NCBI GenBank assembly: GCA_963793865.1
Contig: CAWCBP010000001.1
Span: 640,001-704,000, forward strand
Origin: an uncultured delta proteobacterium
Lineage (GTDB): Bacteria; Desulfobacterota; WTBG01
Reading direction: 5' to 3'
DNA length: 64,000 nucleotides
Part shown: one piece after another, positions 1 through 62,960 of the stretch
Numbering within the stretch: position 1 is the first letter of the stretch
How the letters are laid out: each line of letters begins with the position of its first letter
Notes under the pieces: generated by a model
The model's input: only the letters and a program-made list of their open reading frames with translations
Told to the model about the DNA's origin: nothing
Databases searched by the model: none
Position numbers and translations under genes: made by a program

Positions 1-156
1 TGCTCCTTGATGGGGAATTGCCGGTATGATTCGGCTCACTGCAGTCAGCAACGGTGTTCCTGGTTGATTGAATGCATTTTTTTAAGCCGGCCGACGGTTA
101 AGAAAATGCTTGAAGGGTGAGTATATGAAAATACCTTTTCCCTGTCAATCTTAAGT

Positions 157-810
157 TTAGACCTGTGTGCCCCGCTTCGGCTTGTATATTCCCTGCATAG
201 TCGCACCGAGCATGTGCGCCTTGTAGGTGCGTTTATCCACGGGCGATAGACTCTTGACCATGGATGCGGTTACAAGCTTGTTTCGTTTAAGCCTGTCCAA
301 ACGCAGGGATATCCTTTCAACGGCATCGTCGCTGGTCATCCAGGAGATGCGGTCAAAGGAGCTGAGATTGAGCGGATTGGAATAAGCCCGCAATGACTTT
401 TTCCCAGTGAGATTAAAATATGCCTCAAAATAGGAGATGACCAGCTCGCGGGGATTCCGGTAAATCGCCTCTCGAAACCTGAGCCCGACGAAATTTGATT
501 TGGCGACTGCCCCTACGCAGCTGTTACGCCTGTGGAGTGCAATAACATGGTCGTCATCTTCTGAAGCAAGCATGTGGATGATAGCCGGGGTGTGACCAAT
601 GCGGCGCAGGGCAGCGGCCGCAAATAGGGCGCCGTCAAAACAGTTGGCCCGCCGGGTTCGCATCACCCCCAGCGGCGCCTGGTAGGTGGCATCGATTTTG
701 TAGGAGATGCTGTCCAGAAAGGCCTGGATGGCGGAAGGACTGTCAAGCCGATTGATGAGTTGTCTTTCATTCCTGCTCAGTGCCGCTTCAAATTGCTGCA
801 CAGCATTCAT
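157..810 (-). CDS. Conserved hypothetical protein, transglutaminase-like (Cys/His) core
   Basis: ORF 157..915, likely start MNAVQQ at 810 just after the upstream stop; motifs ANCFDGALFAAAAL and DDDHVIA. Confidence 0.6.
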   Translation of the reverse strand: MNAVQQFEAALSRNERQLINRLDSPSAIQAFLDSISYKIDATYQAPLGVMRTRRANCFDGALFAAAALRRIGHTPAIIHMLASEDDDHVIALHRRNSCVGAVAKSNFVGLRFREAIYRNPRELVISYFEAYFNLTGKKSLRAYSNPLNLSSFDRISWMTSDDAVERISLRLDRLKRNKLVTASMVKSLSPVDKRTYKAHMLGATMQGIYKPKRGTQV

Positions 811-820
811 TGTTTGTCCT

Positions 821-1440
821 TTATGAACCTTGGCTGCGCGCATGCTTTTGGCCCAGGGCGAATATTTTTTTAAGCGCATCTTTCTTTTTCCTGATATCGC
901 CGACATCTCTGACATCGGTTATGTGAATCTTCTGCACGATGTTCATCATGTAGGTTTGACCGAGGTTATGCTCAAACGCCTTGATGGCCAGCCGGGCGGT
1001 TGAGGGGTCTTTAAAGTCCTGCACCAGGCCAATGACCGCTTTTTTCCCTTTCAGGGGGGCATTGATAAACCGGAACGCATTCATGGTTCCCATCTCACCT
1101 GCAATTTCCACCTCCCAGAGGGGAAGGCAGCGTTCCAAAAAGCGGGCCATGATGGAAGTGTAGGAGGCACAGTAGTAGGGTGAGGCAAAAAGAATCAGAT
1201 CGGCTGATACCATTTCCTTCAAAATCATGTCCATGTCATCACGGAAGGTGGCACATCGGAACCCCGGCTTTAAAATGCACTTCCGGTAACATCCCCTGCA
1301 CTGGTTGATGGTATAATCGGCAAGAAAGAATTTTTTTACATGTGCGCCGGAACGATAGATGCGCCATCCAGAAAGGTATCGACCAGCGTATCGGTGTTAC
1401 CCTTTTTACGGGGGCTCCCCACAAATCCCAATGCTTTCAT
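821..1440 (-). CDS. Flavodoxin-fold iron-sulfur flavoprotein / NADPH-dependent FMN reductase family (one apparent frameshift near 1355)
   Basis: AAGGAGG RBS, then MKALGFVGSPRKKGNTDTLVDTFLDGA; after a frame change HVKKFFLADYTINQCRGCYRKC...CATFRDDM runs into ORF 821..1234 (ADLILFASPYY). Confidence 0.8.
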
Positions 1441-1552
1441 CACATCGCCTCCTTACGTTCTCGTGGATAATAAATAACAGTGATGGACTTATATCATATC
1501 CCGAGCCCCGCGTAAACCGGGGAATTAGAACGGAAGGATTTATGATGGTTAT

Positions 1553-1594
1553 AAACGATAAGGGAAGCGGCGGTTACCGCTTCCCTTATCGTTT
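1553..1594 (-). terminator. Intrinsic terminator-like hairpin after the cohesin/dockerin-like gene
   Basis: AAACGATAAGGGAAGCGG-CGGTTA-CCGCTTCCCTTATCGTTT, perfect 18-bp stem. Confidence 0.7.
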
Positions 1595-1673
1595 GTTTCA
1601 ATCTCAGACCTCCTGCAGTCATGAGGTGCGAGAAGGTCTGAATGTCAATGCAAAAACGTGGTGCTTCAGTTGA

Positions 1674-4387
1674 TTACTGTTCCACGCAGCCGCGGCAGGG
1701 GTTCTGAAATAAGCCTCTGCCAAAGTCCGACTTTAAGCCTGAAGCATCGGAGCCGTCACAATCACCGTCGGCATCAAAATCACCGTTGCAGGGATTGTCG
1801 ACCGTGCAGGGGTGATAAAGGGCGGTTCTGCCGAAGGTGTTCTTGAATTGCTTTGAATCTGTTCCGTCTACGTCACGGTCACAGTCGAAATCGCCCTTGC
1901 ATTCGAAATATCCACAGGTGCCGTTATACTTGCTTCCGAAGATGGTTAGGAACCCGTTGACATCAGTGGCGTCGATATCGCCGTCATCATCGAAGTCTCC
2001 CGAGACATTTTCCGAATCATCGGCCGTACCTCTCCATCCAAAGTTGATCTTGAGTTTGTTGGCGTCCTTGCCATCCACGTCGCCATCACAATCAAAGTCG
2101 CCTTTACACGCTCCCTGCACCCGTATGCAGTCTTTGCCGGAAATTTTTGTTCCGTTCTTGAGATTGCCGGTAAGGGTAAGTCGAATTGTTCCTGCCACAC
2201 TATTGAGATTCAGCATCTCAACCAGCTCTTGTGTTTTAAACTTGAGGGTCAGATCCATATAACCATCACACTTGCGTTCATGACAGTCGCAGAGTTCACC
2301 AGTAAAAGGGGTCCCGACATCTTCATAACTCCATCGAATAGGTGCCACTTCACCAGCAACACCCTTCTCTGCTAAGCCTGATTGAGGCTGGATCTATAGA
2401 ATTGACGTCAAAGGTCATGCATTCCTAGCACTGCAACGGGAAGCACACCACGGCTCTTCACATTCAGTGGATTCGGGCAGGAACCAGGTTTGATGTCAAC
2501 GTTCACCTGAGTTTCAGATGGGCAGACACCGCAGTCTGCCGGGCAGGTTTCGCAGGTTTCCGTGCCGTTGCAGGTGCCGTCGCCGCATACAGGGGGGCAA
2601 GCGCCGCAGTCTACCGGGCAGGTTTCACAGGTTTCCGTGCCGTTGCAGGTGCCATCGCCGCATACAGGGGGGCAAGCGCCGCAGTCTGCCGGGCAGGTTA
2701 CGCATGTCTCTGAGGCATCACAGGTACCATTACCGCATGAAGGCGGGCAAGCGCCGCAGTCTGCCGGGCAGGTTTCACAGGTTTCCGTGCCGTTACAGGT
2801 GCCATCGCCGCATGCAGGGGGGCAGGCACCGCAGTCTGCCGGGCAGGTATCACAGGTTTCCGTGCCGTTGCAGGTAGCGTCACCGCATGCAGGCGGGCAA
2901 GCGCCGCAGTCTGCCGGGCAGGTTACGCATGTCTCTGAGGTATCACAGGTACCTCACCGCATGAAGGCGGGCAGACACCGCAGTCTGCCGGGCAGGTTAC
3001 ACAGGTTTCCGTGCCGTTACAGGTACCATCGCCGCATGCAGGCGGGCAAGCGCCGCAGTCTGCCGGGCAGGTTACGCATGTCTCTGAGGTATCACAGGTA
3101 CCGTCACCGCATGAAGGCGGGCAGACACCGCAGTCTGCCGGGCAAGTTTCACAGGTTTCCGTGCCGTTGCAGGTAGCGTCACCGCATGCAGGCGGGCAAG
3201 CGCCGCAGTCTGCCGGGCAGGTTACGCATGTCTCTGAGGTATCACAGGTACCGTCACCGCATGAAGGCGGGCAGACACCGCAGTCTGCCGGGCAGGTTTC
3301 ACAGGTTTCCGTACCGTTGCAGGTGCCATCGCCGCATGCAGGCGGACAGACACCGCAGTCTGCCGGGCAGGTCTACGCAGGTCTCTGTGCCATTACAGGT
3401 ACCTCACCGCATGCAGGACGGGCAGACACCGCAGTCTGCCGGGCAGGTTACGCAGGTTTCCGTGCCGTTGCAGGTAGCGATCACCGCATGCAGGAGGGCA
3501 GACACCGCAGTCTGCCGGGCAGGTTACGCAGGTTTCCGTGCCGTTGCAGGTAGCGTCACCGCATGCAGGAGGGCAGACACCACAGTCCTGGGGGCAGGTT
3601 ATACAGGTCTCAGTGCCATTGCAAGTGCCATCGGGACATGCAGGAGGACAGATCACCGCAGTCCGCCGGGCAAGTTTCACAGGTTTCCGTACCGTTGCAG
3701 GTGCCATCGCCGCATGCAGGCGGACAGACACCGCAGTCTGCCGGGCAGGTTATTGCAGGTCTCAGCGCCATTGCAAAAATGCCACATCGATTGGGCATAC
3801 AGGTAACGATGCCCTGGGTAACGCTGAGAACATTGGTGCCCATCGTAGCCATCGTACACGACACCGCTCGTACATCCCACGGTTGTGTCAAAATCAGTTA
3901 TTCCTTTAACAGAAATGTTACCGGTACCATTTGCCACGCACTGAAAGGTTACCTGCGCTATAATAATATCACCACCGGCATCAGGTACCGGGCAGGTACC
4001 TAACTGTACCACGGCCAGCACATAGGAACCGGGTCCATAAGCATCAGGTATCTTAAGGGTGGCAGTTCCATCCCACGGTCCGCCGGCAATGTCAACGCCG
4101 TCATAAGCGTTAACGCTCACGAGGCTGACCTGGGCCGGATTATAAAACATCTCAATTCCGCTGGAGATAATCGGCTCAGGGATCTCGGCTGCCCAGATGT
4201 CAATGGAAAACGTGTCTCCCGGGTTAAGCGTTTCCGGATTAACCGTATCACAGGTCTTGAGACCGGTTAACCTGCCGCCGGGATTACCTGCCTCCAAAGA
4301 ATCCTGGCAGTAGCTCTGGGCAAAAACTGAGCCTGCCATAAGACCTATGACAAAAAGCACCATTAAACAAGTTGAAATCTTTTTCAT
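1674..4387 (-). CDS. Large secreted protein: signal peptide, cohesin-like domain, 17 Cys-rich repeats, DIKPGSCPNP domain, two dockerin-like modules (multiple apparent frameshifts)
   Basis: Start MKKISTCLMVLFVIGLMAGSVFA after GGAGG; continuous coding character through ORF 3677..4420, the repeat array, VNVDIKPGSCPNPLNVKSRGVLPVAVLG (2420-2510) and ORF 1674..2348 with four GDFDxDGDVDGxD-type loops. Confidence 0.75.
2517..3790 (-). repeat. Coding tandem repeat, 17 x ~75 bp, unit CGDGTCNGTETCETCPADCGACPPA
   Basis: 17 occurrences of the CC(G/A)CAGTC core at ~75-bp spacing; minus-strand translation gives a 6-Cys 25-aa unit. Confidence 0.9.
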
Positions 4388-55234: not shown

Positions 55235-55353
55235 AGGTTTATCAGGTGCGGAAATGAGCCTGACATCGAACGGTAAGAATAATTCGTAATATTAAGCTTG
55301 ACAAAGTTATGAGCATGATACTAGAAACAGCGATAAATAAATAGATGATAGAA

Positions 55354-55456
55354 GCAAATCTCCGAACCGCTTTTTCTAAAACCAAACGGTCATGAAGAGC
55401 GGTCGAAGGGTAGCATTCGAAAGAGTGTTGCCTCCCGTGCTCGGAAAGGAGATGTA
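55354..55456 (+). promoter_or_regulatory. Moco-type (molybdenum/tungsten cofactor) riboswitch upstream of tupA
   Basis: P1 ATCTCC/GGAGAT, P2 ACCGCTTTT/AAGAGCGGT with CTAA, P4 GGGTAGCATTC-GAAA-GAGTGTTGCCT, then CCCGT...GGAAAGGAG. Confidence 0.88.
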
Positions 55457-55467
55457 TGTGGAGTTTC

Positions 55468-56472: not shown

Positions 56473-56520
56473 GATATGTCAAACGTTTTTAGCCGGGTTT
56501 TATTAAGACAAGTAAATATA

Positions 56521-56618
56521 TCATCTGCAAGTTACCACTCCTAAAGATCATAATCCATGGAGGGTAACCGACAGGGTAGACCCCGAAAGGGTTCTATCTC
56601 CCGTGTTTGGAAAGATGA
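56521..56618 (+). promoter_or_regulatory. Second Moco-type riboswitch upstream of the porin gene
   Basis: P1 TCATCT/AGATGA, P2 GTTACC.CTCC/GGAGGGTAAC with CTAA, P4 GGGTAGA-CCCC-GAAA-GGGT-TCTATCT, then CCCGTGTTTGGAAA. Confidence 0.82.
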
Positions 56619-56628
56619 GCTGCCATAG

Positions 56629-56663
56629 GGCCAGTTCCATGTCAACACGGGACTGGCCTTTTT
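56629..56663 (+). terminator. Riboswitch expression-platform terminator
   Basis: GGCCAGTTCC-N10-GGGACTGGCC-TTTTT. Confidence 0.78.
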
Positions 56664-60892: not shown

Positions 60893-62960
60893 ATGAGAAT
60901 GAAAAAGCTACTATCAATAATGCTCGTGCTCGTGGCGTCGGTTTATGCAATCAATTTTGCAATGGCTGCCACAACTACGTATACCTGTAAGCCGATGGCA
61001 GATACCAGGATTGATGCAATAGCCCCGACGACGAATTTCGGGACAGGTACAACCCTTTTAATGGTAGGGCTTGATGGGCCGGTGAGATCTCTCATCAGGT
61101 TCAACATACCGCCCTTTGTTTCGGCGAGTCAGATACAGAGCGCCTATCTGCACGTCTATGGGCGCAGCTCTGGGACAGCATCAATTGACATAAACATTCA
61201 CCCCATAACCCCGCCGGATCTGTGGTTTGAGAAAAACCTTTCCAAACCTGACACAACTCAGATTGTCTGGGGCGCAACCTGGAATGATTACGGTGGAACT
61301 GCGAGCGGCCTTGCTTGGGTGGCACCGGGGGCAGATTACAATGCGGCCGCGTACGCTTCCGGAACTATTGTGGCCGGGCCGAATAGTATTGATATGACAG
61401 CCCTGCTCACCGGTAACCTGGATACCATACGAAAGTACGGTGTTTTGCTCAAATTGCAGGACGAATCATTGGATGTTTTTAAGAGCATGTACTCCCGAGA
61501 TAACGCGACTGATCAGCCCTATCTTGAGCTGAATGTTGATCTCGGTTTGGCTGATACTACGTATATGTGCCCCACCATTGCTGATGTGTACATGGATGAA
61601 TCGCTCGTGGACGGCGATCATAATCTCAATTTCAACTGGAAAACCAGGGTATTGCTTTCCAGGCACGCGACCTATGGAAGAGCACGCGGGCTTTGGAAAT
61701 TTGAGATTCCCGCCGGAATCCAGGCTGAGGATATCACGTGTGCGCAAATTCTTCTTTCCGGGTGCGAACATGCCTTCAGGACGAGGCAATTTAATGTTGA
61801 TTTATATGCGCTCGAAGTGCCTTTAAAGGAGGAGAAGGCAACCTGGGATGAGTCGGATACCGGTGTGGCATGGACAACCCCGGGTGGCGATTATGATGCA
61901 ACGGTAGTCTCATCGGGGATGATTTATCAGACCCTGCTTGGTAATCCCGCATATAACTGGAGGGCGGAGATTGACGTGACCGACCTCCTGGCGGGGAACT
62001 TGGTGAAGAGCGAGGGATAACGGGATATTGATGAAACTGCAGGAAGAGACAGGGACAAATACAAATCAAAATATAGCATCCAGGGAGTCTTACGATGACA
62101 GTGATGTTGCCGCCTACCTGCTGATTGATGTGGCGGATACCGATTCGGATACTGTGTGTAATACCTCCGATAACTGTCCGCTCTTAGCCAACGCCGGGCA
62201 GGAAGACGGCGATGCTGATGCGGCGGGTGATGTCTGCGATAATTGCCCGCTGATTGCCAATGCAGGTCAGGAAGATGGAGATACTGATGTGATAGGTGAT
62301 GCGTGTGATAACTGTCCGCTCGTAGCCAACGCCGGTCAGGAAGATGGAGATGCTGATTTGGTAGGTGATGCCTGTGATAATTGCCCGCTGATTGCCAATC
62401 CCGGTCAGGAAGATGGAGATGCGGATCTGGTGGGCGATGTTTGTGATAATTGTCCGCTGATTGCGAATCCCGATCAGGCAAATAGCGATACGGATGTCCT
62501 GGGGGATGCCTGCGACAACTGTCCTGTAGTAGCTAATGCCGGTCAGGAGGATGCGGACGGTGATGGCGTGGGGGATGCTTGTAACGATGCTGATGACGCA
62601 GATAGTGACGAATGGGGTGATAGCGTAGACAACTGTCCCATCAATTACAATCCCGGACAGGAAGACAACCTTCCGCCCGGGGGTAATGGAACCGGTGATG
62701 CCTGTGAATGTGAGGCAGACTTTGAATGTGATGGAGATGTCGATGGTTCAGATGCGTCAACATTCAAACTCTATTTCGGCAGAGGGCAGTTTTTTGCCCC
62801 CTGTAATGACTTGAATCCCTGCCGGGGCGATTTTGAATGCGACGGAGATGTGGACGGGACTGATGCGAACAGGGTTAAGGTTGATTTTGGCAGGAGTTCG
62901 TTCAGTGATGCGTGTCCGACGACGCCTGTTTGTGCGCAGCCGGATTGGTGCAACTATTAG
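60893..62960 (+). CDS. Secreted protein: two DNRLRE-like domains, TSP3 repeats, C-terminal dockerin-like module (one apparent frameshift near 62010)
   Basis: ADTRID..PTTNFG, RSLIRF, ATWN, SRD..PYL repeated twice; seven DNCP repeats; two DFECDGDVDG loops. Confidence 0.8.
62168..62705 (+). repeat. Thrombospondin type-3-like coding repeats (7 copies, ~69 bp)
   Basis: DNCPLxANxGQEDGDxDxxGDxC units. Confidence 0.88.

Follow-up and report, generated by a model that had tools for sequence, protein, structure and literature searches.

The window analysed here is a 64,000-nucleotide stretch from the assembly of an uncultured delta proteobacterium (GCA_963793865.1, contig CAWCBP010000001.1, positions 640,001 to 704,000; G000:C1:640001-704000 in our own coordinates), a genome of 3.85 Mb in 14 contigs that is 98.6% complete. 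On its minus strand, from 4387 to 1674, lies a gene whose product is on balance probably a secreted scaffoldin, stabilised by disulfides, that serves as a monovalent adaptor or spacer in a non-cellulosomal cohesin-dockerin system. The protein joins a cohesin-fold head to two dockerin-like tails through a Cys-rich stalk, and the more C-terminal of these tails matches a tag found on many other proteins of the genome. Sequence or modelling backs the folds of the domains, their union in one gene, and the presence in the genome of many tag carriers and candidate anchors. The protein would work like an adaptor scaffoldin and is not a member of a cellulosome; the kit to which it belongs is large and rich in cysteine, and what it displays at the cell surface is probably a set of proteases and binding proteins, not cellulases.

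The head has a cohesin fold, as judged by modelling. The last strand of the window's own head lies behind a break in the reading frame, and for this reason the fold was modelled on an intact paralogue from the same genome (L008:1465-1968, 89% identical; alignment of 72 rows), with a predicted local distance difference test (pLDDT) value of 96. Cohesins came first in a Foldseek search of this model (best 6kgf, E 7.6e-8). The best match in VIA was 2vo8 (Z 14.5, root-mean-square deviation (rmsd) 2.2, 127 residues aligned), rows 1-17 of the 50 listed were cohesin-containing entries (Z 14.5-10.9), and antigen I/II and pilin-like domains followed below them at Z 10.8 or lower. The top Atlas clusters for the head were cohesins (0.92-0.94), and a profile of the head family compared with the PDB gave six sequence matches, all of them cohesins, at weak E values (0.0097-0.34). 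Pfam returned no match in the head piece of the window. The expectation of the first-pass annotation that the N-terminal domain adopts a cohesin fold holds, as tested on the paralogue. Among 150 homologues with a head domain, many of them fragments, 138 have one head and 12 have two, never more; the C-terminus is a CFI-box in 19 and IPTL in 4, while one paired tag is present in 27 and three or four repeats in 5. A query for related loci with the head protein found only two, both in one genome.

At the opposite end of the protein, both tails are dockerin-like in sequence, as had also been proposed. Four loops of the form GDFDxDxDxDxxD are arranged in two pairs, with Asp at positions 1, 3, 5, 9 and 12 in all four, and in a model of the homologue P0150 each is followed by a helix (303-312, 337-347, 372-381 and 409-418). 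Tails A and B together reach 23.7 bits for Pfam Dockerin_1 (PF00404; cut-off 22.9) and the intact homologue P0005 reaches 28 bits, while tail A alone gives no Dockerin_1 match. When the profile of the genome-wide tag was compared with the PDB, six of seven matches were dockerin-bearing chains, albeit weak ones (best 2y3n_B, E 0.021). Positions 10, 11, 17, 18 and 22 are the recognition positions of clostridial dockerins (PMC3413522). At positions 10/11, 17/18 and 22 the two repeats of tail B read GT, KN, R and GS, KS, R, whereas those of tail A read GK, KI, W and AT, LT, S. Tail B is 47-58% identical to the 58 paired tags of the genome; the repeats of tail A score 43 and 11 bits against a tag-repeat mean of 60 (sd 7) and are missing the near-invariant R22, and the module is kept in eight homologues. 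Tail B thus fits the genome-wide tag and tail A departs from it at the recognition positions, so that, by sequence, the tails are not equivalent. The P0150 model gives tail B two helices at pLDDT 83-95 and tail A a low confidence (49-66); it is within this low-confidence stretch that tail A aligns to 2vn5_B (Z 6.4, rmsd 3.5, 56 residues) and to 4dh2_D (Z 5.3). Tail B was not listed on its own in the structure comparison, where the Ig-like domain filled the match list, and Foldseek on the 434-residue P0150 model gave no dockerins among the listed matches. A predicted complex of the head paralogue, tail B and two calcium ions had a score of 0.08 against a mark of 0.32 without folded controls, and was counted neither way. 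P0157, a protein of 1417 residues, consists mostly of tandem Cys-rich dockerin-like modules behind a beta-propeller.

Between head and tails lie the stalk and a domain named here for its DIKPG motif. Tandem Repeats Finder (TRF) places the stalk array at 2520-3775 with a period of 75 and 16.7 copies, which corresponds to 16 full 25-residue units and one divergent first unit. The Cys codons are intact at 96 of 96 positions in the full units; identity among the 12 units that measure exactly 75 bp is 72-100%, and over all pairs of these there are 362 synonymous and 249 non-synonymous codon differences. Neither another locus of the genome nor any of 268 collected proteins shows this repeat pattern, and Pfam and NCBIfam offer no name for it beyond one weak match to DUF4215 (E 0.024). 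The DIKPG domain, modelled in P0150 at pLDDT 79-98 by block, has only generic Ig-like structure matches (best Z 7.0); it is unnamed in Pfam and NCBIfam, and its Atlas matches lie under 0.9 and are likewise unnamed. The idea that it might be a second cohesin was dropped, there being no cohesin among the matches listed for the multi-domain model. In the type II X-dockerin dyad an Ig-like X module packs on the dockerin that follows it. The DIKPG domain is Ig-like and stands directly before tail A; no X module appears among its listed matches, and most of its homologues end without a dockerin. The same domain (window 2112-2515; P0161-P0268) is a C-terminal module on hundreds of unrelated proteins, with 512 matches of which 120 were listed, and some of those listed are named from Methanophagales, Desulfobacterales and Acidobacteriota.

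All of these parts probably belong to one gene, as they do in four intact homologues (P0005, P0152, P0153 and P0154), recovered by the head and tail searches, in which head, stalk, DIKPG domain and two dockerin-like modules follow one another in a single frame, so that cohesin and dockerin share one chain. The partial homologues P0150, P0151, P0155 and P0156 have the same order, and neither P0005 nor P0152 has a catalytic Pfam domain. P0005 (681 aa) is 84% identical to the window protein over the first 179 residues and 73% identical over the last 243. Head and tail are retained among homologues but the stalks vary, being Thr-rich or made of different Cys repeats, as would be expected of a spacer. 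Every part named in the first-pass annotation was located in the translation, in the order signal-peptide-like start, beta-rich head, Cys-rich array (17 repeats), DIKPGSCPNP domain, four paired Asp loops and stop codon (Table 1). A GGAGG precedes the start, and the intact homologues P0005, P0006 and P0007 share the same signal-peptide-like beginning. Rfam shows no riboswitch upstream of the gene, and a consensus terminator scan called no terminators and did not pick up the inverted repeat behind it. The earlier description of the host as Gram-negative is upheld, since lpxB was found in the genome; the label of sulfate reducer was not adopted because dsrA has no match over the cut-off in the 98.6% complete assembly.

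Table 1. Parts of the scaffold gene and the inverted repeat behind it, in window coordinates
Feature	Position	Strand	Basis
Signal-peptide-like N-terminus, 23 residues, ending VFA, MKKISTCLMVLFVIGLMAGSVFA	4319..4387	-	translation, judged by eye
Cohesin-fold head, ~168 residues	3814..4318	-	model of paralogue, Foldseek, VIA, Atlas
Stalk, 17 Cys-rich 25-residue repeats (75 bp, 6 Cys each)	2520..3790	-	TRF, unit alignment
DIKPG domain, unnamed Ig-like beta-sandwich	2112..2515	-	model of homologue P0150
Dockerin-like module A, divergent, two Asp loops	1908..2111	-	Pfam, structural match, conservation
Dockerin-like module B (genome-wide Cys-rich tag), then stop codon	1674..1907	-	tag identity, profile against PDB, model
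18-bp perfect inverted repeat behind gene, terminator-like	1553..1594	.	read from sequence

In the window the frame changes through 11 single-base indels (net +5 bases, counted from translations and the repeat-unit alignment), and the predicted product, if this is one gene, has about 902 residues. The breaks fall near 3850, twice near 3790-3750, six times within four repeat units, near 2414 and near 2363, so that eight of the 11 lie in the stalk or just before it; four of the five outside the 16 full units are in single-base runs. The extra base near 3850, a gap in the alignment with the paralogues on C8 and C9, shifts the last strand of the head into another frame, and those near 2414 and 2363, gaps against the C9 paralogue, lie in the DIKPG domain; the C8 and C9 paralogues are free of the extra bases. 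Across the two DIKPG breaks the contig of a relative (run X4) has 65 letters against 67 in the window, in a read-archive comparison that covered window 1500-2515 in four runs, all of them contigs of relatives, none spanning the stretch and the source strain not among them; no sequencing run contained half of the words of window 1-2515, and for RNA runs the shares were below 0.1. As a background, 241 long open reading frames (ORFs) were taken from 400 kb of the same-genus genome G002, 200 of which have a clear orthologue in the present assembly; 28 of these 200 ordinary genes change frame, with 37 shifts in 246 kb, or 0.15 per kb, a lower bound in that compensating indels are missed. Because four homologues are intact in one frame and ordinary genes are frameshifted as well, the breaks are probably assembly errors. 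It might be argued that the family is real and the window copy a decaying pseudogene in this strain, since about 4 indels per kb (11 in 2.7 kb) is far above the rate in ordinary genes of the assembly. Such decay nevertheless appears highly improbable: no Cys codon of the full units has been lost, the reading path runs without a stop, the most shifted of the ordinary genes has five frame shifts, most breaks outside the full units sit in single-base runs, and the relative's contig is without two of the extra bases.

It is across the genome as a whole that the adaptor reading acquires its context. The tag-repeat profile finds 135 repeats in 74 ORFs and the head profile finds 21 ORF pieces; both find nothing in the reversed ORF set. 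The head family has 17 loci with one head each. The tag is paired in 58 of the 74 ORFs (C-terminal in 48, elsewhere in 10) and single in 14, with two others including that of the window, which is the only one to carry more than two repeats. The 116 repeats of the paired tags are very uniform (G10 in 116, K17 in 112, R22 in 115), and a crude signal-peptide filter was passed by 39 of the 74 tag ORFs as against 380 of 1956 long ORFs. A Pfam scan (E<=1e-5) covering 93 of the 95 ORF pieces that carry the tag or the head (the other two, from the window, were scanned apart) found M1 (2), M14 (1) and S8 (2) peptidases, three rhodaneses and nine Lcl_C proteins, together with a metallophosphoesterase, a glucose/sorbosone dehydrogenase, an alpha/beta hydrolase, a multiheme cytochrome, and beta-helix, BNR and PQQ propeller, CBM96, laminin-G and TSP3 proteins; many of the pieces are fragments or have no Pfam match. 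Glycoside hydrolase (GH) families are absent from these 93 pieces at the same threshold, which agrees with the earlier remark that no carbohydrate-active enzyme domain is visible. A genome-wide search confined to two such families gave no match to GH9 and one weak match to GH5 (C8:690811), outside the tag ORFs. Some tag proteins contain CxxCH motifs (C14:77481-80159, nine; C12:80093-81007, four; C8:355172-358339, four), and multiheme cytochromes could be displayed. In the single-repeat ORFs (for example C2:56760-61012, C12:121379-124570, C1:724895-727876 and C4:262471-267010) the repeat mostly lies right behind the signal peptide, often with Lcl_C; these recall naturally truncated dockerins and might pair up.

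The kit extends beyond the head and the tag. A second cohesin-like family, C3, is represented by 19 matches spread over 16 ORFs, and nine ORFs carry a second dockerin-like tail, D2. The C3 profile matched only a Clostridium acetobutylicum cohesin, at full length and E 0.013, a hint that falls short of testing the fold; in a profile comparison it showed no similarity to the head family (probability 0.3%). Standard Pfam searches of the genome find no cohesins and one dockerin, as against the 17 head loci, 19 C3 domains and 74 tag ORFs of the custom profiles. Some proteins of the genome combine two cohesin-like domains with a single dockerin-like tail. With one head per locus, at most two C3 domains per ORF and at most two heads in any of the 150 homologues, no primary scaffoldin with many tandem cohesins was found, although cohesin types beyond these profiles may exist. 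Candidate anchors include a head cohesin with CFI-box-CTERM at C4:110553, a protein with two C3 domains and an IPTL-type tail (C1:1021893-1023828) directly before the one exosortase-family match of the genome (C1:1023397), which could be its processing enzyme, and a C3 protein with a hydrophobic and basic C-terminal tail (C8:360801); IPTL-CTERM also occurs on the homologues P0075 and P0037. CFI-box-CTERM has 34 matches in the genome, 24 of them over the cut-off, and another, unnamed C-terminal module of cohesin homologues has 10. In five proteins a C3 domain is directly followed by a D2 tail at the end (C8:72264-76215, C1:1176594-1178534, C8:309208-311004, C4:100905-103373 and C1:579975-581894), and four of the five also begin with a head-type cohesin.

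Among related genomes the head was matched in five of 10 others of the family and one of 30 others of the class, and the tag in six of 10 and none of 31, respectively; beyond these, the tag profile gave much weaker scores, with matches in seven of 300 additional genomes of the phylum. Three members of the same family (G001, G002 and G008) have 14-16 tag matches and five head matches each, but these are kin and not independent.

Several observations weigh against reading the protein as an adaptor scaffoldin, and at the sequence level the naming of both modules is marginal. The paralogue scores 19.9 bits for Pfam Cohesin (PF00963), under the cut-off of 24.1, and this Pfam family is matched at E<=0.01 in only 8 of 72 head-family members; the head is only 10-18% identical to solved cohesins, and a shared cohesin fold shows no function. 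The fold models were made on the paralogue (head) and on P0150 (tails), not on the window's own broken frame. Tail B alone, at 18 bits, is under the Dockerin_1 cut-off, and both the head and the C3 family are candidate partners of the tag. Finally, head and tag do not always travel together: G005 and G007 have two tag matches each and no head match, and G003 and G031 have head matches and no tag match. One rival explanation grants the cohesin-like and dockerin-like folds but takes the tag for a module of calcium binding, export or sorting and the head for an adhesin or lectin-like domain that stands alone; nothing would be assembled, and the window protein would be a stalked adhesin. The uniformity of the tag and its mostly C-terminal position on unrelated passengers are like those of sorting domains, for which the genome already uses its CFI-box modules; adhesin and pilin Ig-like folds follow close behind the cohesins (Z 10.8-10.1), and 14 ORFs carry only half a tag. 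Even so, we regard this as rather unlikely, since two structure searches and a sequence search all place cohesins ahead of every pilin fold, the 10 paired tags that are not C-terminal would not be expected of an obligate C-terminal sorting signal, and half dockerins that bind cohesins are known in Ruminococcus flavefaciens (PMC5301203).

The first-pass annotation had further suggested that head-to-tail self-binding could build a branched extracellular mesh that recruits dockerin-tagged proteins. For this, both tails would have to bind the protein's own head. Even so, a unit with one socket (cohesin) and two plugs (dockerins) forms branched trees that retain one free socket, and such AB2 polymers do not gel alone. 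A cargo-recruiting mesh made from the scaffold protein alone is unlikely because one free cohesin per polymer would be left for cargo. The combination of one cohesin and two dockerins on which the suggestion was built does stand, being kept together in the four intact homologues, and the window ORF is unique among the tag ORFs in its number of repeats; moreover, the dockerin of R. flavefaciens ScaH recognises its own cohesin (PMC5301203), and proteins with two cohesins and one dockerin make a mixed network possible in principle. The mesh itself does not follow so readily, and we consider the original proposal decidedly doubtful: some 60 other proteins with the same tag would compete for the head and cap the chains, dockerin A is the divergent module without R22, head cohesins never exceed two per protein among the 150 homologues, and in the solved double dockerin of Clostridium thermocellum one module is functionally ambiguous (review PMC12484212). 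A network becomes conceivable only if the genome's two-cohesin, one-dockerin proteins take part in it. A bolder version, in which the lineage builds an extracellular matrix from a disulfide-locked cohesin-dockerin code unseen by Pfam, comprising at least two cohesin families and three dockerin types, with the window protein as the branch point that together with two-cohesin, one-dockerin partners cross-links cells and enzymes, strikes us as a long shot.

The adaptor reading suggests a simpler course of events. The scaffold protein would be exported from the cell, and dockerin B, its C-terminal calcium-loop tag, would plug into a cohesin held at the surface by a sorting or membrane tail. Kept at a distance from the surface by the Cys-rich stalk, the single head cohesin could then capture either another adaptor or one dockerin-tagged cargo (a peptidase, rhodanese, Lcl_C, propeller or lectin-like protein). 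Dockerin A, which would pack behind the Ig-like DIKPG domain, may bind a second cohesin class or be structural. The outcome would be short, cargo-capped chains on the surface and not a free mesh.

Elsewhere in the window, the plus strand at 60893-62960 carries a CBM96 piece, TSP3 repeats (with a 69-bp array at 62169-62553) and the genome-wide dockerin tag, probably representing one frameshifted gene, and two more tagged genes follow at and past the end of the window. Two matches to the molybdenum/tungsten riboswitch (55348-55467 and 56513-56633, plus strand) lie before the gene for a periplasmic binding protein and a porin O/P gene.

Should the modules bind in the proposed way, some hundred ORFs of this uncultured lineage would serve a cellulosome-like kit that displays non-cellulolytic cargo. 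The kit goes almost entirely undetected in standard domain searches, and surveys based on them would undercount such systems. The findings bear on the question, raised for anaerobic methanotrophic archaea (ANME) and their partners, of which dockerins bind which cohesins outside cellulosomes, and the kit could supply orthogonal, disulfide-stabilised pairs for designer scaffolds. The passages of PMC11557425 that were examined do not mention the lineage of this genome, and no paper on a Cys-rich cohesin-dockerin system in it was listed in literature searches of incomplete coverage; the supplement of PMC10553843 may list related proteins.

Among known systems, proposals of cohesin and dockerin with peptidase or adhesin cargo have been made for the planctosome, whose model includes an adaptor with dockerin and cohesin and an M14 peptidase cargo (PMC6461901), for Ca. 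Stygibacter (Cloacimonadota), and for syntrophic sulfate-reducing bacteria (SRB) and ANME, the Desulfobacterota partners of ANME carrying cohesin/dockerin proteins (PMC10553843, PMC9012536, PMC8542988); the system described here is like these. The difference lies in detection: the SRB and ANME surveys found their modules by standard domain annotation, which in the present genome picks up a single dockerin and no cohesin, the other modules being found by custom profiles. Two dockerins in one chain are also found in Acetivibrio cellulolyticus ScaK, which adds SLH and two cohesins (PMC3413522, PMC4217186), and in C. thermocellum dDoc_0689, in which one dockerin binds and the other is the ambiguous module mentioned above (review PMC12484212). 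Unlike either, the window protein has no SLH or protease and combines a single cohesin with tandem dockerins behind an unnamed Ig-like domain. Close parallels are the monovalent adaptor scaffoldins ScaH, ScaF and ScaC (Coh-Doc) of R. flavefaciens, which likewise unite one cohesin with a dockerin and lack a catalytic domain; ScaH, with one cohesin and one dockerin, has been described as a spacer of variable length (PMC12484212), and it binds its own cohesin as well as ScaE, the surface anchor (PMC5301203). The window protein differs from these in its Gram-negative host, its disulfide-rich modules, its stalk of about 425 residues, its two dockerins, a cargo among which no cellulases are seen, and its low identity to solved cohesins. 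Since the general idea has already been published for other lineages, the surprise is limited; what is described here is a variant of it with Cys-rich modules and two dockerins.

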